Below, one piece after another: positions 3,260-19,380 of a stretch of DNA of 21,410 nucleotides. Under the pieces are notes generated by a model. It had not been told where the DNA came from and did not search any database. It saw only the letters and a program-made list of their open reading frames with translations. Position numbers and translations under genes: made by a program. Each line of letters opens with the position of its first letter. Within the stretch, counting starts at the first letter, position 1. Source of the stretch: a virus; the IMG/VR virus record IMGVR_UViG_3300045988_119030, positions 1 to 21,410 of that record. One strand, given 5' to 3'.

Positions 3260-3272
3260 GGGCTTTTTGGAA

Positions 3273-3297: not shown

Positions 3298-3299
3298 AT

Positions 3300-3572: not shown

Positions 3573-3604
3573 GTTGTTATCTCCCTTTCCTTTATTGTAT
3601 CTTT

Positions 3605-3633: not shown

Positions 3634-3651
3634 GCCCTCTATTTAATTTTT

Positions 3652-3960: not shown

Positions 3961-4011
3961 GTTGTTATCCCTTTCCGGTTTGGTAGGTTTTCCTTCCCTT
4001 ACTGTGATTAT

Positions 4012-4040
4012 AGTATAGCACCGATTCGGGATTCTGTCTA
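4012..4040 (-). promoter_or_regulatory. proximal promoter TAGACA-N17-TGcTATACT for 3652-3960
   Basis: Minus strand reads aaTAGACAgaatcccgaatcggTGcTATACT. Confidence 0.45.
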
Positions 4041-4101
4041 TTGACATTATGCACAAACTTTCGCCATAAAAATTGTTGAACTTGCCTATTGACACAAAAT
4101 T

Positions 4102-4128
4102 CCGGCCGTGCCTGGCGTGCACGGCCGG
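4102..4128 (-). promoter_or_regulatory. GC-rich hairpin (CCGGCCGTGC-N7-GCACGGCCGG) between tandem promoters in the leader of 3652-3960
   Basis: Perfect 10-bp stem. Sits directly after the -10 of promoter 4132-4160. Confidence 0.45.
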
Positions 4129-4131
4129 CCG

Positions 4132-4160
4132 ATTATATCATAAAGTTTTGAAATTGTCAA
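4132..4160 (-). promoter_or_regulatory. distal promoter TTGACA-N17-TgaTATAAT for 3652-3960. GC hairpin 4102-4128 sits immediately downstream.
   Basis: Minus strand reads gcctaTTGACAatttcaaaactttatgaTATAAT. Preceded by terminator AAAAATCTCCCCAAAAATGGGGAGATTTTTTT (4168-4199). Confidence 0.5.
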
Positions 4161-4167
4161 TAGGCAA

Positions 4168-4199
4168 AATATACAAAAAAATCTCCCCATTTTTGGGGA
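4168..4199 (-). terminator. rho-independent terminator after 4225-4473
   Basis: AAAAATCTCCCCAAAAATGGGGAGATTTTTTT. Confidence 0.6.
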
Positions 4200-4224
4200 G
4201 ATTTTTAATTCAAAAAATTTAATT

Positions 4225-4473
4225 TTAGCCATCAACACAAATAATGAGAACGTCATCTTTGGCTTTCAAACCGCTGACCGGCAGTCCCAGCACCCATTCT
4301 TCACTTGCGCCCAAAACATCACCATTCAGAGTCATGCGACCTTTGCGGTCTTTGAGATAGCGACCGCAAGTGTTTTCATTTATCACTTCAATGCCGTTCC
4401 CCTCATAGAACATCAGCGCGCCCTTTACCAGACCAATCACATTTTTAACCATGCCCAAAGTCATTTTTGTCAA
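4225..4473 (-). CDS. hypothetical small beta-rich protein (82 aa). By eye it weakly resembles EutN/CcmL-family barrel proteins (…GASEEWVLGLPVSGLKA…). Unverified.
   Basis: ORF. RBS GAAAGAAG. Promoter at 4514-4542. Terminator at 4564-4597 upstream. Confidence 0.55.
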   Translation of the reverse strand: MTKMTLGMVKNVIGLVKGALMFYEGNGIEVINENTCGRYLKDRKGRMTLNGDVLGASEEWVLGLPVSGLKAKDDVLIICVDG

Positions 4474-4513
4474 CTTCTTTCGTCTTTAATATCGTTCCTC
4501 TTGGAACAATTAT

Positions 4514-4542
4514 AGTATAGCACAAGGTATAACAAAAATCAA
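4514..4542 (-). promoter_or_regulatory. promoter TTGATT-N17-TGcTATACT for 4225-4473
   Basis: Minus strand reads cctaTTGATTtttgttataccttgTGcTATACT. Confidence 0.55.
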
Positions 4543-4563
4543 TAGGTAAAATGTATAAAAAAC

Positions 4564-4597
4564 TCGGCAGGATTTTGTGTATCCTGCCGAGTTTTTT
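4564..4597. terminator. bidirectional intrinsic terminator (A-run, stem CTCGGCAGG/CCTGCCGAG, T7). Terminates 4597-4791 on the minus strand.
   Basis: aaaaaaCTCGGCAGGattttgtgtatCCTGCCGAGttttttt. Confidence 0.65.
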
Positions 4598-4791
4598 TAC
4601 TCTTCCCAACTCTCGATGACTTCACCGGTCATTGCGTCGATAATGTCAACCGAGAGGACGTTGTCCGCGTCCATAAACTTCTGTCCGAGGGCATATGCAT
4701 TTTCCTGTCCCGCGACAGACACTTCATAGCGATAGCGATTATTATCGCCAGCTTTGTAATTGTAGTAGTTAACAGAAACAATAAATAACAT
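4597..4791 (-). CDS. hypothetical protein (64 aa)
   Basis: ORF. RBS AAAGGGGAT-N7-ATG. Promoter at 4822-4849 (TTGACA-N16-TGgTATAAT). Confidence 0.6.
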   Translation of the reverse strand: MLFIVSVNYYNYKAGDNNRYRYEVSVAGQENAYALGQKFMDADNVLSVDIIDAMTGEVIESWEE

Positions 4792-4821
4792 TTGGTTTAT
4801 CCCCTTTCTTTTTATACTCTT

Positions 4822-4849
4822 ATTATACCATAGTTTCGGGATTTGTCAA
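4822..4849 (-). promoter_or_regulatory. promoter TTGACA-N16-TGgTATAAT for 4597-4791
   Basis: Minus strand reads cctaTTGACAaatcccgaaactaTGgTATAAT. Confidence 0.6.
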
Positions 4850-4877
4850 TAGGTTTTTTGAAAAAAGTTTGAAAAAA

Positions 4878-4901
4878 GATTGGAGCATTACTGCTCCAAT
4901 C
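4878..4901 (-). terminator. terminator after 4888-5163. The stop codon is in the loop.
   Basis: GATTGGAGCA-gtaa-TGCTCCAATC, then T6 on the minus strand. Confidence 0.6.
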
Positions 4902-5163
4902 TATTCACCGGATAGTCGATTGGTTTAACCTCAATCGGCGAGTTAGCCCAGTCATAGGAAACGCGGAAAAATTCAGCACAGTGGTAACTAAAATCAGCCC
5001 AGCCAAAAGTCGCAAGATGCGATTTCCAATCTCTGAAATATGGTTCTAATTCTTGCGTGATATAGAGCGTTTCTTCGAGCCGGTCTAAAAGTTTTTCATT
5101 CTTCGCCACATGGAAAACTGCGGTGGTCTTAGTCTCAGCGTCGGTGATGATGTATGTTTTCAT
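4888..5163 (-). CDS. hypothetical protein (~91 aa, starting MKTYIITDAE...)
   Basis: RBS AAAAGGAGC-N7-ATG at 5163. Promoter at 5194-5221. The last codons plus TAA lie in the terminator hairpin at 4878-4901. Confidence 0.55.
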   Translation of the reverse strand: MKTYIITDAETKTTAVFHVAKNEKLLDRLEETLYITQELEPYFRDWKSHLATFGWADFSYHCAEFFRVSYDWANSPIEVKPIDYPVNRLEQ

Positions 5164-5193
5164 TTGAAAAGCTCCTTTTCTTTTGATACTACC

Positions 5194-5221
5194 ATTATAG
5201 CACACTTTTGGAATTTGTCAA
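5194..5221 (-). promoter_or_regulatory. promoter TTGACA-N16-TGcTATAAT for 4888-5163
   Basis: Minus strand reads ccctaTTGACAaattccaaaagtgTGcTATAAT. Confidence 0.6.
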
Positions 5222-5239
5222 TAGGGAAAATGAAAAAAA

Positions 5240-5261
5240 AGAGAAGTTTTTCAACTTCTCT
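5240..5261 (-). terminator. terminator after small peptide gene 5251-5355
   Basis: AGAGAAGTT-gaaa-AACTTCTCT flanked by an A8 / T8 run. Confidence 0.6.
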
Positions 5262-5355
5262 TTTTCAGTTTCTTTTCTGCCCATTCAATGAGTGCGCCCG
5301 CGCCGATTGTCCCAAAGTAAATGAAAAGTAAAACTAAACCGTCATGCGTGCTCAT
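5251..5355 (-). CDS. small hydrophobic peptide, 34 aa (MSTHDGLVLLFIYFGTIGAGALIEWAEKKLKKRS). Single TM helix plus basic tail. Not in the ORF track.
   Basis: RBS GGAGG-N8-ATG. The ATG begins 1 nt after the TAA of upstream gene 5356-5484 (TAAATG). Its TGA stop lies inside the terminator at 5240-5261. Confidence 0.5.
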   Translation of the reverse strand: MSTHDGLVLLFIYFGTIGAGALIEWAEKKLKKRS

Positions 5356-5484
5356 TTAATATTCCTCCACATACTCTGTAAAAACAAGCTCCCAGTCAGG
5401 GCCAAGATCCGGAGCTTTGCAGTATCGCGACTGTCGAATGTCATGCTCATTAGTGATTTTGTTGATAAACTCGAATTCATACAT
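5356..5484 (-). CDS. hypothetical small protein (~42 aa, starting MYEFEFINK...)
   Basis: RBS AAAAGGAGAT-N8-ATG at 5484. Promoter at 5517-5545. Confidence 0.45.
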   Translation of the reverse strand: MYEFEFINKITNEHDIRQSRYCKAPDLGPDWELVFTEYVEEY

Positions 5485-5516
5485 TTTTATTATCTCCTTT
5501 TTTTTACTGTACCAAT

Positions 5517-5545
5517 AGTATAGCAGATAATAGGGCATTTGTCAA
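5517..5545 (-). promoter_or_regulatory. promoter TTGACA-N17-TGcTATACT for 5356-5484 and 5251-5355
   Basis: Minus strand reads ggtaTTGACAaatgccctattatcTGcTATACT. Confidence 0.55.
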
Positions 5546-5562
5546 TACCATTTATAAAAAAA

Positions 5563-5588
5563 ATGTACGAGGTTTAATCCTCGTACAT
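5563..5588 (-). terminator. terminator after 5574-5870. The stop codon is in the loop.
   Basis: ATGTACGAGG-attaaa-CCTCGTACAT, then T8 on the minus strand. Confidence 0.6.
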
Positions 5589-5870
5589 TTCCATTAACGA
5601 TTTGATTTTTTCGATTGTATTTTCAATTTCTTCTACATAGTCGGTTTGCTCCTCACTTGCGCGCATGGCCTGTTCATATGCGTCATAGATAGTTTCGCAC
5701 TGTTCACGGGTGTAGTCTTCTTCTGGAGCGTGTTCCATGGTGACGACTGCTGTCCAAGCGAGCGTTTCTTTATCGTCAAGGTCATCGGCTTTTTCCGCGG
5801 CAGTGGCAAGCTCATGTTCGAGGCGCGTCTTTTCGAGCGAGAGGGTCTTGAGAAAATCCTTATTAGTCAT
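5574..5870 (-). CDS. hypothetical acidic protein (~98 aa, starting MTNKDFLK...)
   Basis: RBS AAAAGGAGAT-N8-ATG at 5870. Promoter at 5903-5930. Stop codon in the loop of terminator 5563-5588. Confidence 0.55.
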   Translation of the reverse strand: MTNKDFLKTLSLEKTRLEHELATAAEKADDLDDKETLAWTAVVTMEHAPEEDYTREQCETIYDAYEQAMRASEEQTDYVEEIENTIEKIKSLMEMYED

Positions 5871-5902
5871 TGTGGTGTATCTCCTTTTCATTTGATGCCT
5901 TT

Positions 5903-5930
5903 ATTATACCACTTCTGGACTGAATGTCAA
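5903..5930 (-). promoter_or_regulatory. promoter TTGACA-N16-TGgTATAAT for 5574-5870
   Basis: Minus strand reads cctaTTGACAttcagtccagaagTGgTATAAT. The iteron cluster lies immediately upstream. Confidence 0.6.
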
Positions 5931-6022
5931 TAGGTTTTTGAAAAAAATATTTATTCATCAGGGCTGTATAAATATTCATGTATAAATATTCATTTTCGGG
6001 TGTATAAAGGCGACTGGCATAA

Positions 6023-6053
6023 TGCACAAAATGGTTTCAAAATTTTTGTGCAA
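6023..6053. promoter_or_regulatory. palindrome TGCACAAAA-N13-TTTTGTGCA. Candidate operator.
   Basis: aaTGCACAAAAtggtttcaaaattTTTTGTGCAat. The same half-site recurs at 7694-7739 and 4050-4057. Confidence 0.5.
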
Positions 6054-6072
6054 TATAACTATTGCAAAACTC

Positions 6073-6097
6073 GGCGCGCTGCGGCCCACAGCGCGCC
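6073..6097 (-). promoter_or_regulatory. GC-rich hairpin (GGCGCGCTG-N7-CAGCGCGCC) with a short minus-strand U-tract, embedded in the iteron/palindrome region
   Basis: aaaactcGGCGCGCTGcggcccaCAGCGCGCCggcc. Confidence 0.4.
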
Positions 6098-6179
6098 GGC
6101 CAAATGCATATGTATGATTATTCATGTATATTCATTGCATATTCATTGTATATTTATTCATACATAATATGCGAAAATA

Positions 6180-6204
6180 GAGAGAGACTTAATAAGCCTC
6201 TCTC
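6180..6204 (-). terminator. hairpin terminator overlapping the stop of 6189-6554
   Basis: GAGAGAG-N11-CTCTCTC, followed on the minus strand by TATTTTCGC. Modest U-tract. Confidence 0.4.
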
Positions 6205-6554
6205 CATACCTTGATTATTTCATCATCTGCTATATCATCTGTGTCATTGTCGTTTATCCACAAAAGCAGAAAATCATTATCATCAATGGTCATATTCTCA
6301 ACTTCCCATTGGTTGCCGCGTTCGTCCAGTAGCGTGATGGTGTTACCATTTCGGGAAGCGACCTCTGCACCGATAAAGCGTATGCTTCCTCTCTCTGTAC
6401 CAGCGCCACACCATTCATCTAATGCGGTGAGGTCATAGGACTGCGGCGCTTCCTCACAGGCTTCCGCGGTTGTGTGGTCGTGGAATGGGCCGAAGAAAGA
6501 CACGGAGAGAATGATGGCAATGGCCATGGTGATGATTTTGGAAACGTTTTTCAT
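6189..6554 (-). CDS. predicted secreted protein (121 aa). The N-terminus looks like a signal peptide (MKNVSKIITMAIAIILSVSFFG…AEA); mature part acidic.
   Basis: ORF. RBS AAGAAAGAGGTAAAAC-ATG. Terminator hairpin at 6180-6204 overlaps the stop. Confidence 0.55.
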   Translation of the reverse strand: MKNVSKIITMAIAIILSVSFFGPFHDHTTAEACEEAPQSYDLTALDEWCGAGTERGSIRFIGAEVASRNGNTITLLDERGNQWEVENMTIDDNDFLLLWINDNDTDDIADDEIIKVWREAY

Positions 6555-6576
6555 TTTGTTTTACCTCTTTCTTACT

Positions 6577-6720
6577 TTATAGGTTAGTAGCGATAGTGAC
6601 AACAGCAATAAGCATGAGCGTGCTTGAGACAGCTTTACCTACATTCTTGCTATCTATGGCATAGACAAAATTATATGCGCTTATAGCAGTAAGCACAATG
6701 ATAGCGGCGATGATAGACAT
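6577..6720 (-). CDS. small membrane protein, 47 aa, 2 hydrophobic segments (MSIIAAIIVLTAISAYNFVYAIDSKNVGKAVSSTLMLIAVVTIATNL). Not in the ORF track.
   Basis: RBS AGAGGGGAG-N8-ATG. Lies between 6751-7224 and 6189-6554 on the same strand. Confidence 0.45.
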   Translation of the reverse strand: MSIIAAIIVLTAISAYNFVYAIDSKNVGKAVSSTLMLIAVVTIATNL

Positions 6721-6750
6721 GGCATATGCTCCCCTCTTTGAGCGAGTGGG

Positions 6751-7224
6751 TTAAACCCACTCGCTGAATAGCTCGCTGATGAAGTCATCGTGGACATCAT
6801 CAGGCAGTTGGTCGATGGTACACTCATAGGTGCTTACCACGGTAAGCGATGAGCCATTTTCAAGGTTCTCGCGCTCAAACTTATCCCGTTCACCAGATGA
6901 AAGAAAAAATGCGGTATAATCGTAAGTGTCTTCTCCATCATTGATGGAATAATCCACCACCTTAAAGCGCATCTTGTTCCAGAGGTTCGCTATGATGGAA
7001 AGATCCATAGCCAGCTCTTCCTCGCGGCGGACAGCTTCGAGAGACGCCTTATACTTGCGCCATGCGGCTACCGTAAAGTCTCTTATGCCGCACCCGATAA
7101 GACAATGGTATTCCTCTAAGTCTTTGATAACCAGTTTGCGTCCCTCGCGCACCATATCCCAAGCATCTTCTGCCATTGCGTTGATGGTGACAGCATCATA
7201 TTTATGCAAGCCCTGAATTTTCAT
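6751..7224 (-). CDS. hypothetical protein (157 aa)
   Basis: ORF. RBS GGAAGGG. The TAA stop sits in the loop of hairpin GCGAGTGGGTT/AACCCACTCGC (6741-6766). Confidence 0.55.
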   Translation of the reverse strand: MKIQGLHKYDAVTINAMAEDAWDMVREGRKLVIKDLEEYHCLIGCGIRDFTVAAWRKYKASLEAVRREEELAMDLSIIANLWNKMRFKVVDYSINDGEDTYDYTAFFLSSGERDKFERENLENGSSLTVVSTYECTIDQLPDDVHDDFISELFSEWV

Positions 7225-7305
7225 TGTATAGCCCTTCCGCGCTTTTTGCGCTATCGTGTTATATGTAGGTATGTTCCCCCATGTGGGGAGTGAGGGCTTG
7301 CGCCC

Positions 7306-7599
7306 TCACTTTGCAATCTTTGTAGTAACGGAAGCCGCACGCGGCGCGCCAGTCTTCTTGTACTTATCAAAGCACTCGGCGTAGAGTTTCGGCGCTTTGT
7401 TGCGGAACATCACCGTGTCGAGCGTTTCAGTAGCCTTGCCACCCTTGCCAACAATAACAGTAAACTTATTGTAAGTAAAGGTAACGCTTTCGCCGTTAGC
7501 TTCCTCGCGGGCTTCTGCCTTGAGCAATTCTAACTGTTCCTTGAGCGCGTCTATCTGCGCGGAAATCTCGCACATTTTTTTAATTTTATTGTTCGTCAT
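7306..7599 (-). CDS. hypothetical protein (97 aa). First gene of the leftward module.
   Basis: ORF. RBS GAGGAT. The TGA stop lies within terminator stem GTGAGGGC/GCCCTCAC (7291-7312). Confidence 0.55.
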   Translation of the reverse strand: MTNNKIKKMCEISAQIDALKEQLELLKAEAREEANGESVTFTYNKFTVIVGKGGKATETLDTVMFRNKAPKLYAECFDKYKKTGAPRAASVTTKIAK

Positions 7600-7693
7600 T
7601 TTTGAATCCTCATTTCATGCAATTTACTGTTCGGTGTTCCGCCGTTCAGCATGGTTACATGGTAGCAGATTCAGCCACGGAATACAATTGACA

Positions 7694-7739
7694 GATTGCA
7701 CAAAGATTTGTTTTGTACGGGGCGGGTTTTTGTGCAATC
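7694..7739. promoter_or_regulatory. palindrome GATTGCACAAA-N24-TTTGTGCAATC. Second copy of the candidate operator.
   Basis: Perfect 11-bp arms. Lies in the 400-bp noncoding region upstream of the first leftward gene. Confidence 0.5.
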
Positions 7740-7777
7740 TACCGCCGGGCGGCACCCTTGCATCATACCTTTGCATT

Positions 7778-7801
7778 TTTATTCACTCAAAAATGAATAA
7801 A
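7778..7801. repeat. inverted repeat TTTATTCA-N8-TGAATAAA (the iteron motif in palindromic arrangement)
   Basis: ttTTTATTCActcaaaaaTGAATAAAac. Confidence 0.45.
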
Positions 7802-7895
7802 ACCTGCATAGAGGGGGGTGTATTTCGGGAAAAATAAATTTTTATTTATCGTTTTTTCTTTTGCCTGGTCAAAACACAATCTAAATCAATTTTCA

Positions 7896-7935
7896 ATTTC
7901 AAATCACGAAATAATTTAAAATTTCAAATTACGAC
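7896..7935. repeat. imperfect direct repeat ATTTCAAAT(C/T)ACGA(A/C) x2, spaced 25 bp
   Basis: ATTTCAAATCACGAA at 7896-7910. ATTTCAAATTACGAC at 7921-7935. Confidence 0.4.
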
Positions 7936-8025
7936 TTCTTTTTTCTACCTCTTTTAGGCTTCTCACCCCACATAAAAGTGTATAATCCAGAAGTAGCAGA
8001 ATATGTAGCTTTCTGCTGATACTTT

Positions 8026-8421
8026 TTAGCAGCTGCTTTCAAGGGGTTGAGGGGTTTCCGCATTTAATTTTTCCTCCATATATTCGATTAATTTATCTTT
8101 ATATTTACAACTATCAATATATCTATTAATAGTATCTATATCATATTTTTCCATTAAGTGCTCTAATACATATTTGTATTTATTTAACTGATATTCTTCT
8201 TGTTCTTCTTTAGTGCTTAATTGGGCCTTTTCCGCGTCTGATAAAGGTTTATAAGTAATTGTTCTTGACCCATTATCCTTTTGCTCAATACGTATTGTTT
8301 TAAATAATTTCCAATCTCTTACAAAAGGATCTTTATCTCTTGTGGCGTTAAAATATTCTTGTTCTAATCTAAATATTACTGCGTCTATCCCTCTTACTTC
8401 AAAAGGCTGGTTCCGCCTCAT
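8026..8421 (-). CDS. hypothetical protein, AT-rich (~131 aa from MRRNQPFEV...). The track start at 8454 is also possible.
   Basis: ORF. Internal RBS GGGAGG-N9-ATG at 8421. Confidence 0.45.
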   Translation of the reverse strand: MRRNQPFEVRGIDAVIFRLEQEYFNATRDKDPFVRDWKLFKTIRIEQKDNGSRTITYKPLSDAEKAQLSTKEEQEEYQLNKYKYVLEHLMEKYDIDTINRYIDSCKYKDKLIEYMEEKLNAETPQPLESSC

Positions 8422-8638
8422 TTTCAATATCCTCCCATTCAAATGTTCCATCATCTAATTCATATACAAATGCCTGTTTATAGAATGATGAAACAATTCC
8501 ATCATTTGCGATTCCTTTTGGACTATTTTTCGCATCATGGAAACAATTATAAACAATTAGTCCTTGCGTTTCATATCGCGAAAAATCTACTGCCCTTCCC
8601 TCAAAATCATAATTATAAAATATGTTTAACAATAGCAT
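8399..8638 (-). CDS. hypothetical protein (79 aa), AT-rich. Overlaps the start of 8026-8421.
   Basis: ORF. A leftward promoter candidate at 8821-8849 gives a long leader. Confidence 0.4.
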   Translation of the reverse strand: MLLLNIFYNYDFEGRAVDFSRYETQGLIVYNCFHDAKNSPKGIANDGIVSSFYKQAFVYELDDGTFEWEDIENEAEPAF

Positions 8639-8677
8639 ACACTCATATTGTGCGATTGGCCATTTATTTAATTCTTT

Positions 8678-8705
8678 TTGCTAATTTGCCATTTTTTGGT
8701 ATAAT
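8678..8705 (+). promoter_or_regulatory. candidate rightward promoter TTGCTA-N16-TGgTATAAT upstream of a 10-codon ORF (8746-8778) with RBS AAAGGAG
   Basis: Plus strand reads tttTTGCTAatttgccatttttTGgTATAAT. Confidence 0.3.
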
Positions 8706-8820
8706 ACCCAAAAGGCTTTTCTATATAACCATAAAAAAAGGAGTGATGCTACTAATGCACAACTCAATAATACAATAAAAATAATTTCCATAAATACTCT
8801 TTTTCTTTTTTCTTATAATA

Positions 8821-8984: not shown

Positions 8985-10040
8985 ATGATAAAACTTGATT
9001 ATTCTTTACAAACTCCAGAAGAAAGAAATCAATTAGTCGAACAAATTTTGGCTGATAATCCAGATCCGCCTGAAAAGTATTTAGAAATTTTAGCAGACTA
9101 TTTGGTTCTTTGTATGGAGAAACAAGAAAAAAAGGAGAAAAAATTATTAACTGATAATCGTATGGCTACAGTTAATAAGCGTGAGACTTCTTTTGAAGGT
9201 CTTGTTTCCCAACTCGAAAATGGCGAAGATGGAATTTATAATTTAATTACAGATAATAGAAATACAATATTTCAACCACATATTACAATTACAAAAAAAG
9301 ATTTAGAAGAGATACCAAGTTTAAATTAGTTAAGAGAAGCCATTAATGTTTGGGAGGCTAAATTAAAAGTAACAGAAGGAAAAGATGCTTTTGTTATTAA
9401 AAAGGCTCTTATTGAAATGCGTAAAGATTAGTATGTTATGAAAAATGCTTATCGTCGTCCAATAGTGCCTACAAAATTAACCAGATCAAAGTCTTATATT
9501 CCATTAGATGATAAAACATTTATTTTTGATGATGATGGTTTTCCCATTCCTGATGGAATTAGTTTATTAAGACCTGAAATATGTTCTGCGGTTTTATGTA
9601 ATTATTCCCGACTAAAACAAGATAGTTGGGGCGAATATGATAAAGATTTATGGTATTTAATGGAGGATTTTGATAAGCTTTGTGATAAAGCCTTAGCTAA
9701 TTATCCTCTTTATGATAGAATCGTTGAATATAAAATTGATGGTTTACAAAATATTGACATTCAAGAGAAAATACAAATGGAATTTGGTATTAAACATAGT
9801 CTTGAATATATTTCAAGTTTATGGCGTAATAAAATTCCAAAATTAATTGCTTCGACTGCGGAAGATGAATATTTAGATAATTATTATTTAAATGTTGAAA
9901 AAGGTAAATATAAAAAATGTAGTCGTTGTGGTAAAATAAAATTAGCTCATAATAAATATTTTAGTAAAAATAAAACAAGTAAAGATGGCTTTTATAGTAT
10001 TTGTAAAAGTTGTCGAAATTCTAAGGCCAAAAAATCTTAA
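8985..10040 (+). CDS. zinc-ribbon protein (352 aa if TAG is read through). Two in-frame TAGs at 9327-9329 and 9432-9434. C-terminal CxxC…CxxC motif. Function unknown.
   Basis: Single frame 8985-10040, interrupted only by TAG and ending in TAA. Consensus promoter at 8932-8960. RBS GGAGG-N6-ATG. Confidence 0.6.
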
Positions 10041-10089: not shown

Positions 10090-11277
10090 ATGGCTGAAAC
10101 ATATTATTGCGAAAAATGTAATCGCACAATGAATGGCACGGAATTCTATTCATCTAATAATTTAGAAAAATATCCTAATGATGGTAAATTTCCTGTGTGC
10201 AAAAAATGTATGACAATGCACGTCGATAATTGGAATCCAGATACTTATTTATGGATTTTACAAGAAGCGGATGTTCCTTATGTTCCAGATGAATGGAATA
10301 AATTAATGGAAAAATATGGGCGCGATCCGCAGTCTATGACCGGTATGACGATTCTTGGACGTTATTTGTCAAAAATGAAACTCAAATAGTTTAAAGATTA
10401 TCGTTGGAAAGATACAGAATTTTTATAGTAGATGGCGAATAATAAATTAGAGCAAACTATGAAGCGTCAAGGATATGATGCTCAATAGATTGCAACCGCT
10501 ATTAAAAAAAGTTCTATTGCTATTCCAGAAGGAGAACTAAAAGAGCCGGTTTATGCTCCACCGCCTAATGCCCCTACGGAAGATTATTTTGCACAATAGA
10601 GTGGTGAAGTTGAACAAGAATTAGACTTAACTGATGAAGACCGCACTTATTTAAGACTTAAATGGGGCAAGACTTATAAACCTGAAGAATGGGTTAAGCT
10701 TGAATAGTTGTATGAAGAAATGATGGCTTCTTATGATATTCAAGGTGCCGGACATAAAGATACGCTAAAATTAATATGTAAGACATCTTTAAAGGCAAAT
10801 CAATTGATCGATATTGGTGATATTGAAGGTTTCCAAAAGATGAGCAAAGTATACGATAGCTTGATGAAGTCTGGTAAATTTACTGCTGCTCAAAATAAAG
10901 CAGAATCAGGTGAATTTGTTGATTCAATTGGCGAATTAATTGAATTATGTGAAAAAGAAGGATATATTGAAAGATATTATGTTGAATAGCCACATGATAA
11001 AGTGGATTTAACTATTCAAGATATGCAACGTTATACTCGCACTCTTATTGAAGATGAAACTAATATCAGCACAATGGTAGAAAAAGCTTTGCGCGAAAAT
11101 GCTAAAGAAGATGAAGAGAAAGCAAAGAACGCGGAAAGCGATATCGTTGATGATGCTGATTTAAGTATTGAAGAACTTGAAAAAACTATTAAAGATAGTG
11201 ATTACGCGGATTTTGAGGAATTTAAAGAATAGGAGTCCGCGCAAGATAATGAGTTCTTATAGAGTTTGGATAAATAA
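10090..11277 (+). CDS. protein with N-terminal CxxC…CxxC zinc ribbon (~395 aa). Nine in-frame TAGs including tandem TAG-TAG at 10431-10436. Possibly small terminase or another DNA-packaging protein by position.
   Basis: One continuous frame joining ORFs 10090-10389, 10708-10989 and 11002-11232. All interruptions are TAG. The TAA stop overlaps the terL ATG (TAATG). Confidence 0.5.
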
Positions 11278-13016
11278 TGGCATTACAAGATTTACTGTAG
11301 TTAAGTGATAGCCGTAGAAAAATAGGTCTATCACCGGAGCGAGTAGAAGCGGTAATGCCCACTATCCGCAAATACGTTGCCTTTTGGAGAGAATATCCTG
11401 ATTTATTTGTAGATTTTATGGTTCGAGGAAGACGCACTGAAATAAAAGATGGAGAATTTAACTTTTATTTTTATTAGAGAGTATTTCTCCGTTCTGTTAT
11501 GCGTTATTAGTATGTTTACGCGGTTTTTCCTCGTGCTTATTCCAAATCATTCTTGTCTGTTATGGCATTAATGATTAGATGTATTTTATATCCTGGTGCG
11601 CATTTGTTCGTTACTTCTGGAGGTAAAGAACAAGGTGCTAGTATTCTTCATGATAAAGTTCAAGAAATATGTGAACTTATTCCAAGCTTTAATCGAGAAA
11701 TTGATTGGAGCCGAGGAAAAACTCTTGAAGGAAAAGATAAAGTTAGATATGTGTTTAAAAATGGTTCAGTTTTGGATAACCTCGCAGCCCGTGAAAGCAC
11801 TCGTGGTTAGCGTCGTCATGGTGGACTAATGGAAGAATGTGTTGGTATTGATGATACCATTCTTCGTGAAGTTATTATTCCTGTTATGGCAATTTCTCGT
11901 AGAGCTAAAGATGGCACTACTAATGAACAAGAGCCATTAAACAAATCACAAATCTATATTACTACTGCTGGTTATAAGGGCACATTTCCTTATGATAGAC
12001 TTATTGGTTTCTTAGTTCGTATGGTAACTTAGCCTGATCGTTGTATGGTATTAGGCGGAACATGGCGAACTCCTGTTGCAGTAGGATTACAAAGTAAAAC
12101 ATTTATTACTGACCAAAAGAATGAAGGAACTTATAATGAAGCTTCATTCGAACGTGAATACGAGTCTAAGTGGTCAGGAACTGTTGAAGATGCTTTCTTT
12201 AATGGAGAGCATTTTGATAGAAATAGAAAACTATTATAGCCTGAATATGAAGCTTCTGGACGTGCGGGCGCGCAAGCTTATTATGTGCTTTCAGTAGATG
12301 TAGGTCGTAAGGGATGCGATTCAGTAGTTTGTGTATTTAAAGTAACACCACAAGCTCAAGGTCCAGCTATTAAATCTTTAGTAAATATGTATACTATGTC
12401 AGATGATCATTTTGAAGATTAGGCTATTAAATTAAAGAAATTATTTTATAAATATAAAGCTAAAACTTTGGTTATAGACGGTAACGGTTTAGGTATTGGA
12501 CTTTTGGATTATATGGTAAAATCTCAAAATGATGAAGACGGTGAATTTTTACCTGATTTTGGTGTTGAGAATGATGATGATGGATATTATAAAAAATATC
12601 GTACACAAAATACTCAATTTGATGCTATGTATGTTATTAAAGCAAATGCTCCAATAAATACTGAATGTCATGCTAATGCTCAGACTCAATTACAGGCGGG
12701 TAAGGTAAAATTCTTAATAGATGAGAGAACAGCTAAAGAAAAATTATTAGCTACTCAAAAAGGTTCAAAAATGACTTCTGAACAAAGGGCAGATTATTTA
12801 AAACCATTTACTTTAACCTCCATATTAAAAGAAGAAATGATGAATTTACGCGAAGAAAATGAAGGTATTAATATTATCCTAAAATAGGCAAATCGCGGAA
12901 TTCGTAAAGATAAATTTTCGGCTTTTGAATATGGATTATATTATTTAAAACTTGAAGAAGATAAAAAGAAAAAACGTAAAAAGTTTAATGCGGCTGATTG
13001 GTGCTTTTTAAATTAA
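11277..13016 (+). CDS. terL: terminase large subunit (~579 aa). Eight in-frame TAG codons, at 11298, 11475, 11508, ~11806, ~12030, 12237, 12420 and 12885. Ends with TAA.
   Basis: Frame-0 continuity across ORFs 11553-11810, 11829-12032, 12045-12239 and 12468-12887. N-terminal ATPase Q-motif FY*RVFL followed by a Walker-A-like PRAYSKS. Walker-B-like STRG*RRHGGLMEE. C-terminal nuclease motifs YVLSVDVGRKGCDSVV and VIDGNGLGIGLLD. Confidence 0.8.
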
Positions 13017-13028: not shown

Positions 13029-13385
13029 ATGCGTGCTTCAAGAGGAGAAATTAAAATTGAAGAAATCTTAGAAGAAGCAGGACTACCTTTTAAAATGGAA
13101 TATATTTTTCCAGATTTAAAAAGCCCAAGCGGGCGTCCGCTTCGTTTTGATTTTGTTATATTTGATGATGATGGAAAAATTGATTTCATTATTGAGTATT
13201 AGGGAAAATAGCATTATGAAGCCAGTTCTAAATTTGGTGGAAAACGCGGTTTATACCAGTAGCAATATAATGATAATCAAAAAAGACGTTTTTGCGCTTT
13301 ACATGATTTTAGATTAATAGAGATTCCATATACCGACGAAAACCTTATTTCTTATGATTATATAATGAAATTAGCAGGTTATTAA
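13029..13385 (+). CDS. Vsr/DUF559-like endonuclease-fold protein (118 aa; restriction-endonuclease-like fold). Probably a free-standing homing-type endonuclease. Three in-frame TAGs.
   Basis: RBS AAGGAGGG-N6-ATG. Motif RPLRFDFVIF…IDFIIEY*GK*HY resembles the DUF559 …DF…iE.DG.QH signature. This is from memory, not a search. Confidence 0.5.
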
Positions 13386-13398: not shown

Positions 13399-15048
13399 TT
13401 GGATACGCAAGATCGTAATGATTAGATTCACGCTAAAGGTTTTGATATTTATAATAGTCGTTATGAATATAATTATAATGATACTATGGATTATGCTAAT
13501 AGAAAAATAAAAGTTGGCACAAAAACTTTAGATGATGCTATTTTAAAACTTGGTGATTATAGTAAGATTAGATACCCAGGTCAAACTCGTATTATCACGA
13601 AACCTGATGTGCTTCGCGCGCTCGCAGAAAGAGATCTAAATGCTTTGCGATATATTTCTAATTTTTATTATGATATAAGTGGTGTATATCAACGAGTTTG
13701 TAATTATGTTGCTTTTTTATACCGCTATGATTGGTATATCGCGGCCGAAACTTATGATGATAGTGTAAAAGAAGAAAAAGTTTTAAAAGATTTTTATAAA
13801 ATGTTGAATTATTTTGATAATAGTTATATTAAAAAGATTTGTGGAGATATTGCTTTACAAGTCGTTAAAAATGGATGCTATTATGGATATATAGTTCCTT
13901 CAGAGAAAAATCTAATTTTACAAGAATTGCCAGTTAGATATTGTAGAACACGTTATAGTGTAAATAATACCCCAGTTGTCGAATTTGATATGCGATTTTT
14001 TGATACTTTTAGAGATATGAATTACCGCTTAAAAGTATTAAAATTATTCCCAGAAGAATTTGCTAAAGGTTATGTTTTATATAAGCAAGGAAAACTTGCT
14101 TTAGAAGAAGCGGTTGGATGCTAGCATACTGGTAGTTGGTATGTTCTTGAGCCAGAAAATTGTATTAAATTTAATATTAATAATAGTGATGTTCCTATTT
14201 TTGTAAATTCCATTCCTACTATTATGGATTTAGATGCAGCGCAAGATCTTGACCGCAAGAAACAAATGTAGAAGTTGCTTAAAATTTTAGTCCAAAAGCT
14301 CCCAATGGATAAAAATGGTGATTTGATATTTGATGTTGATGAAGCCAGAGATATCCATAATAATGCCGTTTAGATGTTATAGAGGGCTATTGGAGTAGAT
14401 GTTTTAACTACATTTACTGATGTAGATTCTATTGATATGTCTGATAAGAATACTACTACAACGACAGATGATTTAGCTAAAGTTGAACGTAGTGTTTATA
14501 ATTCATTAGGTATTTCATAGAATTTATTTAATACTGATGGTAATATGGCTTTAGAAAAATCAGTGTTAAATGATGAATCTACAATAAGAAGTTTAATTTT
14601 ATAGTTTAATATATTCTTTAATAGAATTATTGAGAAAAAGAGTAGTAATAAAAAATATAATTTTAGATTTTATTTATTAGAAACTACTCAAAATAATTAT
14701 CAAACACTTTCTAAAATGTATAAAGAACAAGCGCAAATGGGACAATCAAAATTATTGTCTTAGATTGCTCTTGGACATTCATAGAGTTTTATTCTTAATG
14801 CAGCTCATTTTGAAAATGAGATTTTACATTTAAGTGAAATTATGATTCCTCCTCTTATGAGTTCTACTATGGGTAGTGAAGATATTTTGGGTTTAAAAGG
14901 TTCATCATCTAATAATAAAACTCAAAATAATTCAGGAAGTTCAGGTTCTGGAACTACTAAAGCTTCTAATGGCGAAGCAGGACGTCCGGAAAAACCTGAT
15001 GATTAGAAAAGTGAAAAAACTATTCAAAATAAAGAAGCAATGAAATAA
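13399..15048 (+). CDS. putative portal protein (~549 aa, about 10 in-frame TAGs). The call is by position after terL and by size. The start may be TTG at 13399 (RBS AAGGAGGTG-N5) or ATG at 13486.
   Basis: Continuous frame 1 from 13399 to TAA at 15046-15048, interrupted only by TAG. No motif recognised by eye. Confidence 0.4.
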
Positions 15049-15057: not shown

Positions 15058-16641
15058 ATGAAACATACAAGTATTAAATTAAATACACCTTGTGAGTTTA
15101 TAAATATAACTCCTGTAAATCCTTTAATTTCTAAATGCCAAATTAAGGTTTGTTATGTAGATGATAAGCCTAATCGTAATAAAAGCGTAATTACTAAAGA
15201 TGTAGCGACTGAGATGGCTAATAGTCTTCCGGGCAGTCCTATTGTTGGCTTTTTTAATGAGAATGCTGAAGATTTTGAAGAACATAATAGGATAATTGAA
15301 TTATCTAATGGCGAATTTAGAATGAGAGATAATACTCGCCCTTATGGTTTTGTTGATCTTGGAGCTAAAGTTTGGTTTTAGAAATTTTTGGATGATGGTG
15401 TTGCCGAACGTGAGTATTTAATGACTGAAGGTTATTTGTGGACTGGTTAGTATCCTGAGTGTAAACGTGTAGTTGAGAAAGGGAATAATCATTCTATGGA
15501 GCTTGATGAAAAAACATTAAATGCTACGTGGGCAAAAGATAGTAATGGAAAGCCTTAGTTTTTTATTATAAATAAGGCAATTATTTCTAAACTTTGTATT
15601 TTGGGAGAAGAAAATGAACCTTGTTTCGAAGGCTCTCAAATCAATGTGAATTTTTCATTCGATGATGGTTTTAAGAACACTTTGTTCTCCATGATGAATG
15701 AACTTAAAGAATTTATGAAAGAAGGAGGACCCAAAGTGTTTACACAATATGCTGTTGAAATTGGCGATAGTTTGTGGAATTTTCTCTGGTCTTATATTGA
15801 GACTAAGTATCCTGGCGAGCCTAGTAGTTATTGTTCTATTTATCGCATTGAAGGCATTTATGAAGATGCTGGACAAAAGTTTGCTATTCTTCAAAATAGA
15901 CAAGATCAAAAATATTATCGCATGGACTTTTCTCTTACCGATGTAGAAGGCTTTGTTCCTTCTGACGCTTTAATTGAAGTAACTAAGTCTTATACTCCGG
16001 CAGCAGAGCCTCAGTTTGCTCTTGCTGATGTTGAAGCTTTTGAGACTGATTATGCTTCAAAGAAAAAGGCTGAGGAAGAGGACAAAAATAATAAATCTAA
16101 TGGCCAAAACCCTGATAATAAATCAGAGAGCAATGATAATAAAAAGAACCCTGATAATGGGGAACCCTCTAATAAGTCTGATAAAGGCGACAATGGTGAG
16201 AATGATGATAAAAAGAAAAAGAAGAATTATTCTCTTGAAGAAGTTGTTGAATATACTGAACTTAAAGCTCAGTATGATGAATTACAGACTAAATTCGCAG
16301 CTCTTGAAACTGAAAATAATAGCTTGAAAGAGCAAATTGCTCCACTTGCTGAATTTAAAAATGCTGCTGAGAAGAAAGATAAAGAAGATATGATTGCTAA
16401 ATTCTATATGCTTTCTGATGCAGATAAGGCTGATGTTATTGAAAATATTGATAAATATTCTCTTGATGATATTGAAGCTAAATTATCTGTTATTTGTGTT
16501 CGCAACAAGGTGAGTTTCGACCTTGACGAAAATAATAAGCCCAATGGTGCTACTACTTTTAATTTGAACGATAATGGTTCAGAAGATGATGATATGCCCG
16601 CTTGGGTGAAGGCGGCTTTTGCTACCGCCAACAAAAATTAA
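15058..16641 (+). CDS. putative prohead protease and/or scaffolding protein (~527 aa). N-terminal globular domain with 3 TAGs. Central K/D/N/E-rich low-complexity linker. C-terminal coiled-coil (ELQTKFAALETENNSLKEQIAPLAEF), which is scaffold-like.
   Basis: ORFs 15058-15381 and 15601-16641 share a frame and are joined through TAGs at 15380, ~15448 and ~15556. RBS AAGGAGG-N5-ATG. Located immediately upstream of the capsid genes. Confidence 0.45.
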
Positions 16642-16658: not shown

Positions 16659-17576
16659 ATGTTTAAAGACTTTTTGAATAAGAATCTTCCTATTAAGTCT
16701 CAGGCAAAGTATGTTGAGTTTGGTTACGGTCAGGTCGAGCCTAATCACCTTTCCGCACAAAGAAATGCTCAAATCTATGCTCAACTTCCTGCCAATAAAG
16801 ACATTAAGATTCTTGAAAACGGTCAGTTTGTAAAGTATGACTATGCTGCTAATGATAATGGTATTGGCGAAGTCAACTTCACTGGCGAAGGTGAATGGAT
16901 GCTCGTTTATAACGAGATCAAGCTTTATCGCGATCATTATGATGGCAGTAAGCAGTGGGATTGCGAATTTGCTATGATTAAAGATGACTATCAGGCTCGT
17001 GTTTATAGCCCTTATGATTGGGAGCATACCGAGGTTGAATATGGTGGTCGTTTCTGGAATGGTGTTGATGAAAAGGGTCAAACCTATAAGTTAATCAATC
17101 AGACCGTTTCCGCAGATCAAGGTTTAAAGACTGTTACTATTGCTGGTCGTGTTTATGATGTTGATGAAACCGGCAAGTTTACTTATGATGGTAATGAATA
17201 TACTCTTGATAGTAATCATCAAGTTAAGAATGTCCCTGTAAAGTATTATTATGATAAACTTCTTACTGATGTTCCTGATATGTATGAAATGAATTGGACC
17301 AATGATCCATATCATAAGTTAGGTATTTATCATGAGAAGTTCATGGAATCTGGCACTTCTATGGTTCCTCGTGTATTTAAGACCATGATTGGTGATCTTT
17401 ATACTACTAATATGATTAATGAAGAGACTCTTGCTGTTGGAGATAAGCTTTCTCCTTCTGCTGCTACAAAGGGTATTCTTAGCAAAACTGGCGACGATTC
17501 AATGACCTGGCAGGTTGTTAAGGTTTATACTATGCCTGATGGTCAAAAGGGCGTCAAGGTAATGCGTATTAAGTAA
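16659..17576 (+). CDS. hypothetical structural protein (305 aa). No in-frame TAG. Possibly a capsid decoration or accessory protein.
   Basis: RBS AAGGAGG-N9-ATG. T-ending codon bias like the MCP gene. Lies between the scaffold-like gene and the MCP. Confidence 0.55.
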   Translation: MFKDFLNKNLPIKSQAKYVEFGYGQVEPNHLSAQRNAQIYAQLPANKDIKILENGQFVKYDYAANDNGIGEVNFTGEGEWMLVYNEIKLYRDHYDGSKQWDCEFAMIKDDYQARVYSPYDWEHTEVEYGGRFWNGVDEKGQTYKLINQTVSADQGLKTVTIAGRVYDVDETGKFTYDGNEYTLDSNHQVKNVPVKYYYDKLLTDVPDMYEMNWTNDPYHKLGIYHEKFMESGTSMVPRVFKTMIGDLYTTNMINEETLAVGDKLSPSAATKGILSKTGDDSMTWQVVKVYTMPDGQKGVKVMRIK

Positions 17577-17593
17577 GAAAGGAGAAAAGGATA

Positions 17594-18700
17594 ATGTTAG
17601 ATAAAAATAATTTAATTGCTCTTATGAAGCAAGTTGCTAAGGCTGATCCTTCTGCTCCTGTTGCTTATAGTTATGAGGGAAAAAATCTTAGTTATGAAGC
17701 CTTAAATGAAACTCTTCGTAATGAAATGAATGAGTTGGCTGGTACTTACGCTCTTTATCGTGAAAATAAGAATCTTATTTTCTCTATGATTGAGCAGACT
17801 CTTGATGAGGTTCTTCCTAAGAAAGTTATTCAGCAATATGATCAGTTTGCTGAGGTTAAGACTTTCGCTCAGGGTGATAAGCCCATTTTCCGTCGTCCTC
17901 TTAATAATCGTGCTCGTGCTAAGCAGTTTGTAACTCGCGTTGGTCTTGCTGGTATTTATGAAGTCTTCAAGCTCGGACCTAAAGAGAATGAAGCCTTCGA
18001 GGTACGTACTAGCGCTATCGGCGGAGCTGCTCAGATTGGCTTCGAAGAGTTCCTTGATGGTCGTGTTGATTTCGGTGAAGTAACTAAGATCATCATGGAT
18101 GGTATGGATGAACTTATTTATAAAGAAGTTGCTGCTGCTCTTAGATCTTCTATCAATCAGCTTCCTCCTGCTAACCGCGTTGCGGCTGCCGGATTTGATG
18201 AAGCTGCTATGGATCGTTTGATCACTATTGCTTCTGCTTATGGTACTCCTACTATTTATTGTACTTATGAGTTCGCTGTTAAGATGATTCCTCATGAGGC
18301 TTGGAGATATACTGAAGCTATGAAGAACGAGCTTTGGAATAATGGTCGTCTTGCTACTTACAAGGGCACTAAGGTTATTATTCTTGAACAGGGTTTTGAA
18401 GATGAAACCAATACTCGTAAGGTTATTGATCCTGGTTATGCTTGGGTTATTCCTACGGGCGCTGATGGTAAGCCTGTAAAGATTGCTTTCGAAGGTGGCA
18501 CTATTGTTGACGAGTTCAATAATTATGATCGTTCTCGTGAGATTCAGGTTTACAAGAAGGTTGGCGTAGTTTGTATGCTCGCTAATAACATCTGTGCTTA
18601 TGTTGATACTTCACTTCTCGGTCAGATGTATACTTGGAATTATGATGGAGTTACTGGTAAGGTTATCACTTATGATGGTCGCCTTGATGGTACTGTCTAA
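17594..18700 (+). CDS. putative major capsid protein (368 aa). No in-frame TAG.
   Basis: RBS AAAGGAGAAAAGG-N-ATG. The size and position after the scaffold gene fit an HK97-fold MCP. Strong terminator at 18721-18760 directly downstream. Highly biased T-ending codon usage. Confidence 0.5.
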   Translation: MLDKNNLIALMKQVAKADPSAPVAYSYEGKNLSYEALNETLRNEMNELAGTYALYRENKNLIFSMIEQTLDEVLPKKVIQQYDQFAEVKTFAQGDKPIFRRPLNNRARAKQFVTRVGLAGIYEVFKLGPKENEAFEVRTSAIGGAAQIGFEEFLDGRVDFGEVTKIIMDGMDELIYKEVAAALRSSINQLPPANRVAAAGFDEAAMDRLITIASAYGTPTIYCTYEFAVKMIPHEAWRYTEAMKNELWNNGRLATYKGTKVIILEQGFEDETNTRKVIDPGYAWVIPTGADGKPVKIAFEGGTIVDEFNNYDRSREIQVYKKVGVVCMLANNICAYVDTSLLGQMYTWNYDGVTGKVITYDGRLDGTV

Positions 18701-18720
18701 TTTAATATAAATTATTCCAT

Positions 18721-18760
18721 GGGGAGAAGGGATTAAACTCCCTCTCCCCATATTTTTGTT
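18721..18760 (+). terminator. strong rho-independent terminator after the putative major capsid gene
   Basis: GGGGAGAAGGGA-ttaaac-TCCCTCTCCCC followed by ATATTTTTGTTTT. Confidence 0.7.
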
Positions 18761-18786
18761 TTATGAGTAAAAGGAGAAATTGAATA

Positions 18787-19380
18787 ATGATTAATAATGA
18801 AGATATTTATAATGTAAAAAATAGAAGCACTAGCGTAGTTGTTTATACTATTCCTGATACTAATTTGCGTCGTGAATTTGCGCCTGGTGAAACTAAGCGC
18901 ATTCCATTTGGTGAGCTAGAGAAGTTAACTTATCAGGCAGGCGGCCGCGAATTAATTGCTAATTTTTTACAAATTTTAGAGCCAGAAGTAACTCATACCC
19001 TTAATGTTCATACTGAACCTGAATATAATATGTCAGAGCAACAAGTTGCTGATTTAATTCTTAATGGCTCATTAGATGCTTTCTTAGATGCTCTTGATTT
19101 TGCCCCTATTGGAATTATTGACTTAATCAAGAATTTATCTGTTAGCCTTCCTATTACTGATATTAATAAGCGTAGAGCTTTGAAGGAAAAAACTGGGTTT
19201 GATGTTGATAAAGCTATTGCTAATGATATCGCTAGTAAAGAAGAAGATACTATTGTAGAGAAAGAACCCGCAGCTAAGCGTCGTGTAGTAAGAGAAGAGC
19301 CTACTACTCAAGGTCGTCGCACAAGCGGTTCTGGATATAAAGTAATTAATAAAACCGAGGAAACTTCCTCCAAGAAATAA
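18787..19380 (+). CDS. hypothetical head or connector-associated protein (197 aa). No TAG. Basic C-terminal tail.
   Basis: RBS AAAAGGAGAAATTG-N-ATG. TAA stop. Confidence 0.5.
   Translation: MINNEDIYNVKNRSTSVVVYTIPDTNLRREFAPGETKRIPFGELEKLTYQAGGRELIANFLQILEPEVTHTLNVHTEPEYNMSEQQVADLILNGSLDAFLDALDFAPIGIIDLIKNLSVSLPITDINKRRALKEKTGFDVDKAIANDIASKEEDTIVEKEPAAKRRVVREEPTTQGRRTSGSGYKVINKTEETSSKK

Follow-up and report, generated by a model that had tools for sequence, protein, structure and literature searches.

A TAG codon at the predicted Q-motif glutamine of a large terminase very probably encodes glutamine in an SPbeta-like phage of the human gut

How does a phage obtain a large terminase from a gene that contains eight in-frame amber codons, and which amino acid stands at the one that falls into the predicted adenine-binding motif of the packaging ATPase? 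This question is posed by terL of IMG/VR virus record IMGVR_UViG_3300045988_119030, of which positions 1 to 21,410 were analysed (hereafter the window, i.e. the whole 21,410-nt stretch, to which all coordinates refer unless another contig is named). The window covers the late-gene end of an SPbeta-like siphophage (~190 kb) of the human gut, which uses genetic code 15, and in this phage TAG very probably means glutamine. The UAG at 11475–11477 would specify the glutamine of a Tyr-Gln Q motif, which lies 23 residues upstream of the Walker A lysine and binds the adenine of ATP; with this residue spelled UAG, the phage could produce full-length active terminase only by decoding UAG as Gln. Decoding would be carried out by a phage-encoded tRNA with the anticodon CUA, from a dispersed tRNA array in another part of the genome. 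TAG interchanges freely with CAA and CAG between relatives, and the early genes and three capsid genes avoid it.

The terL gene, which encodes a large terminase of the SPbeta YonF type, lies at 11277–13016 on the + strand and comprises 579 codons, including eight in-frame TAG, with TAA as its terminator. All eight internal stops are TAG (starting at 11298, 11475, 11508, 11808, 12030, 12237, 12420 and 12885); the coding frame contains neither TAA nor TGA, whereas the other two frames of the segment hold 20 and 33 TAA and 4 and 40 TGA, respectively (24 and 73 combined). The open frame is thus not a chance run. An identical TerL, called with TAG as Gln, is present in a public protein collection (P0001). 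Two of these TAGs, codons 67 (11475–11477) and 78 (11508–11510), stand in the context FY-TAG-RVFLRSVMRY-TAG-YVYAVFPRAYSKS, the second of them 11 codons past the first and 7 codons ahead of P85 in the motif PRAYSKS. Translation therefore confirms both positions as given in an earlier note on this DNA, which had placed the first TAG on the conserved glutamine of the terminase Q motif and had argued from it that TAG encodes Gln.

For that argument to hold, the segment must be a terminase gene, and this identification is borne out by several lines of evidence. A PHROGs search assigns TerL to phrog_2 ('terminase large subunit', E=5e-17). Single-sequence phmmer against PDB returned no match, so that a profile was needed: one built from 42 homologues matched T4 gp17 at E=6e-4 and, over TerL residues 328–411, the nuclease domains of G20c/P74-26 TerL at E=2e-5 (hmmsearch), and hhalign of the TerL family against gp17 gave E=2.4e-5 over 359 columns with 75% probability. 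The AlphaFold model of TerL (predicted local distance difference test score, pLDDT, 88.7) shows the two-domain overall fold of a large terminase, and Foldseek against PDB ranked T4 gp17 first (E=7e-16), followed by the TerL proteins of D6E, Sf6, HK97 and T7. Profiles and predicted structure together thus identify 11277–13016 as a large terminase gene. The Pfam comparison that the note had proposed (Terminase_6 or Terminase_GpA) came back empty: no family matched TerL when TAG was entered as X (E<=0.01), or even when it was entered as Q and the limit raised to E<=10. TerL belongs to a YonF-type family outside the coverage of the Pfam terminase models.

Two profile methods place Y66-Q67-R68 of TerL on Y142-Q143-R144 of gp17, aligning F-Y-Q67-R-V-F-L-R...P-R-A-Y-S-K90-S with D-Y-Q-R-D-M-L-K...S-R-Q-L-G-K-T. 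The gp17 motifs had been quoted correctly in the note; DYQRDML starts at residue 141, which makes the glutamine Q143, and SRQLGKT starts at 161, which makes the lysine K166. The distance from the glutamine to the Walker A lysine is therefore 23 in gp17 and TerL alike, and the proposed position of the TAG on the Q-motif glutamine has stood up. The Walker A motif itself (P85 to S91, PRAYSKS; 11529–11549, + strand), aligned to SRQLGKT of gp17, is deviant in that Ser replaces the usual Gly before Lys; homologues have TRAFSKS, TRGSSKS or SRGQGKT at this position. In alignments of 42 and 50 sequences from diverse family members, Q67 is invariant, as are R86 and K90 of Walker A, E187, and D341 and D401 of the C-terminal nuclease domain. 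E187 is the catalytic glutamate that follows the Walker B acidic residue E186 (11832–11837, + strand), GGLMEEC of TerL being aligned to MIYIDEC of gp17, where D255-E256 are the counterparts. We take Q143 of gp17 to be the residue of its adenine-binding motif; no paper was found that names it explicitly as such. The Q motif of packaging ATPases combines an aromatic residue with a carboxamide that binds adenine (PMC8216284), and the structure of gp17 has been described with an adenine-binding motif (PMC9958956).

What do related phages carry where the window has TAG? In all nine cultured standard-code homologues, the columns of codon 67 and of codon 382 (12420–12422) hold glutamine. The latter column, the second one with invariant Gln, lies in the nuclease domain and aligns with the Q of WSDQVARLK in G20c/P74-26 TerL. 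Hundreds of close relatives are present in the database, and 68 distinct terL genes of the clade (60–99% identity) were compared. Codon 67 is spelled CAA in 29, CAG in 12 and TAG in 27 of them, and codon 382 is CAA in 16, CAG in 18 and TAG in 34; no other codon occurs at either position. A 99%-identical relative has CAG instead of TAG at codons 178 and 537, each a single C/T transition. The terL frame is intact in all 68 relatives while the TAG positions shift and swap with CAA and CAG. Around 20 of the 68 genes lack TAG altogether, and recoding is hence patchy within the clade, as has also been found for other clades (Borges et al., bioRxiv 10.1101/2021.08.26.457843).

The remaining TAG columns of terL hold residues of the Q/K/R/H/E type, as seen at variable Gln sites. 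In none of them do Trp, Leu or Tyr predominate, the outcome that had been named as fatal to the glutamine assignment. Codon 8 (11298–11300) occupies a variable N-terminal position at which relatives have GAT, AAT, GAC, TAG or CAA. Codon 78 is TAG in 24 clade members, CAA in 18, AAA in 15, CAG in 6 and AAG in 5, with K, R, H or Q in cultured homologues. Codon 178 (11808–11810), in R-G-Q-R-R upstream of Walker B, alternates between AAG, CAG, AAA, TAG and CAA. Codon 252 (12030–12032) is TAG in 24, AAA in 20, CAG in 7, GAA in 6, GAG in 5, CAA in 3 and AAG in 3; codon 321 (12237–12239) is TAG in 30, CAA in 18, CAG in 11 and AAA in 7; and codon 537 (12885–12887) is CAA in 36, TAG in 16 and CAG in 11.

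Beyond terL, 12 orthologous late genes were compared codon by codon with those of a relative whose terL is 89% identical. Among the 62 TAG/sense pairs, the partner codon encodes Gln in 33 cases, followed by Glu (9), Ser (5) and Lys (3), in line with the glutamine assignment of the note. When these partners are scored with substitution frequencies taken from the same pair of genomes, their log-likelihood is highest if TAG is Gln (-125), ahead of His (-211), Glu (-228), Ser (-257), Lys (-265), Leu (-307), Trp (-317) and Tyr (-318), i.e. Gln is preferred by 86 log-likelihood units over the next best residue. Glutamine is kept at 66% of true Gln codons and at 53% of TAG partners between the two genomes. 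As a terminator, TAG is not used by any of 78 genes (14 late genes, plus 64 early ones from near-identical contigs), which end in TAA (55) or TGA (23). Nine of the 12 late genes contain 2–9 TAG each and no in-frame TAA or TGA, and if TAG is read as sense, the + strand from 8985 to the window end resolves into a tight array of long genes that is broken in the standard code.

Which molecule would decode UAG? Neither a tRNA gene (ARAGORN) nor any Rfam family was found in the window. IMG/VR was scanned for a CUA anticodon loop combined with a T loop, and the names of the contigs retrieved were intersected with those of the terL carriers; an exact pattern derived from the suppressor of the gut phage phAss-1 and of L141, a 188-kb relative (IMGVR_UViG_3300031555_003801), missed the lineage of the window, and a looser pattern recovered it. 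Four IMG/VR contigs of 161–197 kb, with TerL 98% identical to that of the window and a late module 96.5–97.2% identical in nucleotides, carry a 90-nt tRNA with the anticodon CUA (ARAGORN; Rfam tRNA 57.8 bits). It is encoded at 7965–8054 (+) of L256, 9078–9167 (-) of L259, 3369–3458 (-) of L262 and 1688–1777 (+) of L274, in a dispersed tRNA array beside tRNA-Val and a 90-nt tRNA-Tyr(GTA). This tRNA(CUA) is 70–74% identical to other suppressors, one of those of phAss-1 (70%) among them, as opposed to 56% to the neighbouring tRNA-Tyr. At the acceptor end, members of the suppressor family have U-A or a mismatch at 1:72, never G-C, together with G2 (G2-C71) in all but one member and G73 in most; G10 is nearly invariant. 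As far as can be judged from sequence, these features agree with the identity elements listed for bacterial tRNA-Gln (PMC9976931) rather than with those of Ser or Tyr. An origin from the adjacent tRNA-Tyr in the manner of supF was rejected in view of the low identity and the acceptor-end features. Sequence comparison hence indicates that a UAG decoder is present in this phage species, and from the protein alignments we infer that it is charged with Gln.

Two further RNA gene calls were noted in relatives. ARAGORN called an 80-nt tRNA-SeC(tca), which would read TGA, at 7726–7805 (-) of the 196-kb relative L259, a candidate that was left unconfirmed by the Rfam gathering score. In L141, whose TerL is 71% identical to that of the window, the tRNA array also includes a transfer-messenger RNA (2404–2753; Rfam RF00023, 102.6 bits), which has the tag peptide AKPYRLAA and is located ~250 nt upstream of the tRNA(CUA).

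The tRNA(CUA) has an unusual extra arm. Between the anticodon arm, which presents CUA, and the T arm, it forms a second hairpin with a 7-nt loop, Y-U-(C/U)-U-G-A-N, that resembles the anticodon loop of a tRNA-Gln (U33, CUG or UUG, A37). The loop reads C-U-U-U-G-A-A in the lineage of the window and C-U-C-U-G-A-A in phAss-1 and many others, and in a 98-nt member the whole hairpin is UACGG-CUCUGAC-CCGUA. Of 20 unique members, 17 have CUG as the loop triplet and 3 have UUG, and differences in the 2–5-bp stem are compensatory. A larger set was drawn from IMG/VR loci and held 103 unique CUA tRNAs, among them 62 of ordinary class I and 39 with a long arm; 31 of the 39 long-arm members have the Gln-like loop, as against none of 92 other long tRNAs from the same loci (37 Ser, 32 Leu, 9 Tyr and others). 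The pattern used for collection required CTCTAAA in the first hairpin, so that the conservation of this hairpin is given by construction; no such constraint was placed on the second hairpin.

Strong identity elements of tRNA-Gln include G36 and position 34 (PMC9976931). They are destroyed by a CUA anticodon, which makes a decoy Gln arm attractive: the extra arm would offer U35-G36-A37 to the Gln-charging machinery (glutaminyl-tRNA synthetase, GlnRS, or non-discriminating glutamyl-tRNA synthetase, ND-GluRS, plus amidotransferase) and would thereby restore determinants lost with the anticodon. We put this forward tentatively, as one possible reading of the extra arm—an identity decoy or alternative anticodon arm—in which the tRNA would be something other than an ordinary tRNA-Gln with a mutated anticodon. 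No description of a Gln-anticodon-like extra arm was found in the literature searched, coverage of which was incomplete, and an earlier description may exist.

Several observations speak against the glutamine reading or the decoder proposed for it, and they have to be set against the alternatives. TAG could be read as another residue, such as Tyr, through a supF-like change of GUA to CUA, as Ser or Leu, whose synthetases read a long variable arm and ignore the anticodon, or as Trp, Lys or Glu. The tRNA(CUA) is 90 nt long with a long extra arm that is otherwise typical of bacterial tRNAs for Ser, Leu and Tyr, it neighbours a tRNA-Tyr of the same length, and plain similarity gives no isotype, also when the 20 tRNAs annotated in Bacillus phage Thrax3 serve as references. 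The G73 of most members is shared by bacterial tRNA-Ser. The decoder has been seen only in genomes 96.5–97% identical to that of the window and not in the window's own contig; ARAGORN detected no tRNA within ~20 kb upstream in three near-identical or related contigs, nor in 20 metagenome-assembled genome (MAG) loci around terL. In distant homologues, columns 8, 178 and 252 hold residues other than Gln (D/N, G/K/L and K/G, respectively), which fits variable sites and is uninformative on its own. Against a different residue stand the log-likelihoods, in which each of the six named candidates falls far behind Gln, the restriction of codons 67 and 382 to CAA, CAG and TAG among 68 relatives with Gln in standard-code phages, the closer kinship of the suppressor with other suppressors than with tRNA-Tyr, and the combination of 1:72 U-A or mismatch, G2-C71 and G10, which fits the bacterial Gln set and not that of Ser or Tyr (PMC9976931). 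We therefore regard decoding as any other amino acid as very unlikely.

Alternatively, TAG might still be a stop, with terL and its neighbours being pseudogenes, split genes or genes expressed by low-level leaky readthrough, and the long frame a relic. Standard-code annotation does fragment related records, the phage deposited as Phass-1 having three 'hypothetical proteins' in place of terL, and two PHROGs of 'unknown function' match only parts of TerL, phrog_15503 residues 11–210 and phrog_24618 residues 354–579; both probably stem from recoded terminases that standard-code annotation had cut into pieces. A relic is hard to reconcile with a frame that lacks TAA and TGA over 579 codons and has stayed intact in every relative while TAGs came and went, with the complete avoidance of TAG as a terminator, with the tRNA(CUA), or with the abundance of the phage, one capsid protein of which is indexed in 1,692 collection blocks and near-complete contigs of which measure ~190 kb. 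TAG makes up 40% of the Gln-type codons in most late genes and reaches 8–9 per gene, a number at which leaky readthrough would give essentially no full-length product. That TAG still terminates translation is thus scarcely credible. A less drastic objection leaves TAG=Gln untouched and holds that the glutamine at codon 67 is conserved for some reason other than adenine binding. The profile-to-gp17 alignments are indeed only moderately significant, as the hmmsearch E-value of 6e-4 and the hhalign probability given above show, identity to gp17 is only 13–17%, and the adenine-binding role of gp17 Q143 is presumed, along the lines of a general statement about packaging ATPases (PMC8216284). The objection nevertheless appears unlikely, given that two independent profile methods arrive at the same pairing of both the Tyr-Gln-Arg triplet and the P-loop, that the spacing to the Walker A lysine is the same in both proteins, that 50 sequences show no variation in this column or at R86, K90 and E187, and that the predicted fold is that of gp17. 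A glutamine codon at the Q motif remains our preferred reading of the TAG at 11475–11477.

The genes around terL are all encoded on the + strand and belong to the same late block. This block opens at 8985–10040 with a sigma-factor-like gene (phrog_5767 'sigma factor', E=3e-54) that contains two in-frame TAG, so that the putative late transcription factor would also depend on suppression; the C-terminus of its product has a zinc-ribbon-like CxxC...CxxC. It is followed by a YonG-like gene at 10090–11277 with nine in-frame TAG (Pfam YonG_N on the orthologue), labelled 'small terminase' in phages PJN02 and Thrax3. Downstream of terL lie the YonE-like portal gene (13486–15048; phrog_2739 'portal', E=5e-80), with nine in-frame TAG within the called gene, of which columns 384 and 412 are mostly Q among cultured homologues, and a YonD-like prohead protease/scaffold gene (15058–16641; Pfam YonD_N on the orthologue) with three. 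The capsid block of three genes (16659–19380) contains the YonB-type major capsid protein at 17594–18700, and three further late (head-tail) genes at 19457–21318 have 3, 4 and 9 in-frame TAG. Pfam families found on the neighbouring genes of relatives are YonG_N, YonD_N, YonB, YomW, YomV and YomU. The order YonG, YonF (terminase), YonE (portal), YonD, YonC, YonB is common to the cultured relatives, which include Enterococcus phage H1, Geobacillus virus E3, Bacillus SPbeta, Sundance, PJN02, Thrax3, vB_BcoS-136, Lactococcus 949 and Staphylococcus PhiSepi-HH3.

Between terL and the portal gene, at 13029–13385, sits a free-standing gene for a homing endonuclease of Vsr/PD-(D/E)xK-like type, a position shared with Enterococcus phage H1 and phAss-1. 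It matches phrog_559 and phrog_9084 (homing or HNH endonuclease) at E about 1e-23 and has the highest TAG density of the window, with three TAG in 118 codons (58, 61 and 78). The label 'DUF559-like' under which the earlier note had listed it did not survive, since the nearest Pfam model is DUF2726, itself short of the cut-off (23.6 versus 24.7 bits). The motif Y-TAG-GK-TAG-HY reported there is present, as part of IIEY-TAG-GK-TAG-HYE, and the expectation that homologues carry DG.QH holds for one of its two TAGs: in Enterococcus phage H1 (NGEQHYE), the second (codon 61) corresponds to Gln, as does codon 78, whereas the first (codon 58) corresponds to Asn. In three other relatives, codon 58 is Gln.

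The use of TAG is uneven along the genome. Most late genes have a GC content of ~0.30 and spell 63 of their 156 Gln-type codons as TAG. The capsid block has none among 31 (Fisher p=1.2e-6 against the late genes elsewhere), a GC content of 0.38 and a preference for CAG over CAA, and it is likewise TAG-free in the 89% relative (L001). The phage may thus keep its most highly expressed proteins independent of suppression. Positions 1–8800 of the window hold an array of small genes, about 20 in number, which run leftward and have strong ribosome-binding sites, a GC content of 0.42 and almost no in-frame TAG, all ending in TAA or TGA; in the 89% relative, the DNA of this part is not conserved.

How does this phage compare with systems already described? 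TAG-to-Gln recoding of late genes is established in gut phages, namely in crAss-like phages, Lak phages and other clades, and Borges et al. assigned TAG=Gln from terminase alignments with stops shown as X (bioRxiv 10.1101/2021.08.26.457843); metaproteomic proof of code 15 for crAss-like phages is given in a further report (PMC9523058). Code 15 in gut phages and the same terminase argument have thus been published, and the present case holds nothing new in principle. As in the crAss-like, Lak and 'gemstone' clades, in-frame TAGs are concentrated in structural and late genes, a terminase TAG falls on Gln, a tRNA(CUA) is phage-encoded (here in genomes 96.5–97% identical to the window) and close relatives within the clade use the standard code. 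In contrast to those phages, the present lineage is of the SPbeta/YonF type, ~190 kb in size and related to cultured phages that infect Firmicutes; its three capsid genes are wholly free of TAG and its suppressor has the Gln-anticodon-like extra arm. These last two features may go beyond the known picture.

The closest described case is phAss-1, of the proposed Phassvirus (OQ749652), which NCBI taxonomy includes in a 'Caudoviricetes code 15 clade'. For this phage, suppressor positions in TerL were found on conserved Gln of other TerL proteins, and three genes for tRNA-Sup-CTA have been reported (Babkin et al. 2023, PMC10607447). Its terminase belongs to the same family (TerL 45% identical over 90%), a homing endonuclease gene likewise follows terL, TAGs likewise occur in terL, portal and tail genes, and one tRNA-Sup-CTA is homologous (70%) to the tRNA(CUA) of the window's relatives. 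It differs in genome size (136 kb versus ~190 kb), in spelling the Q-motif codon as CAG where the window has TAG, and in having an additional ordinary class I suppressor that adjoins the long one. T4 gp17 shares with TerL a Tyr-Gln-Arg whose glutamine precedes the Walker A lysine by 23 residues, along with the acidic residue of Walker B, the catalytic Glu and an RNase H-like nuclease domain, yet identity is 13–17%, PRAYSKS replaces SRQLGKT, no Pfam terminase model matches TerL and the glutamine is spelled as a stop. The YonF module of SPbeta agrees in gene order, in the Pfam families of the neighbours and in the conservation of Q67, Walker A and E187; it differs in its standard code, in an identity of only 23% and in the homing endonuclease that separates terL from the portal gene in the window. 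On the side of the decoder, Escherichia coli supE (glnV) is an amber suppressor tRNA-Gln(CUA). It shares with the phage tRNA the CUA anticodon and a Gln-type acceptor end (weak or unpaired 1:72, G2-C71, G73), whereas the phage tRNA, whose acceptance of Gln is presumed, has the added hairpin between the anticodon and T arms.

Assignment of a host from MAG labels was rejected. Contigs of this one phage occur in bins labelled Mollicutes, Treponema, Bacteroidales, Lachnospiraceae and others (loci L019–L040), so that the host cannot be read from bin taxonomy. One contig of 380,007 bp, roughly double the length of the genome, and a 402-kb IMG/VR contig with two different terL (87% and 76%) look like concatenated or chimeric assemblies. 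Nine members of the protein family (P0141, P0214, P0215, P0225, P0238, P0245, P0261, P0266 and P0269) are 620–1013 residues long and match TerL in two stretches, the main one starting at residues 81–92, at or just before Walker A, which suggests that they carry intein-like insertions in the P-loop region.

Going by these results, annotation of this abundant gut phage of ~190 kb requires translation table 15, since table 11 breaks the terminase, the portal, the tail proteins and the late sigma-like factor into fragments. The Q-motif codon provides a clean internal control for such a reassignment, in that an invariant glutamine of the catalytic site is spelled CAA, CAG or TAG interchangeably within a single clade. 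Suppression of UAG is presumably efficient in this phage, and, by analogy with the model of Borges et al., recoding may delay late-gene expression until the suppressor tRNA has been made. If the extra arm of this tRNA is functional, it would be a natural answer to the identity problem of anticodon-mutated tRNAs and would be useful for engineered amber suppression.

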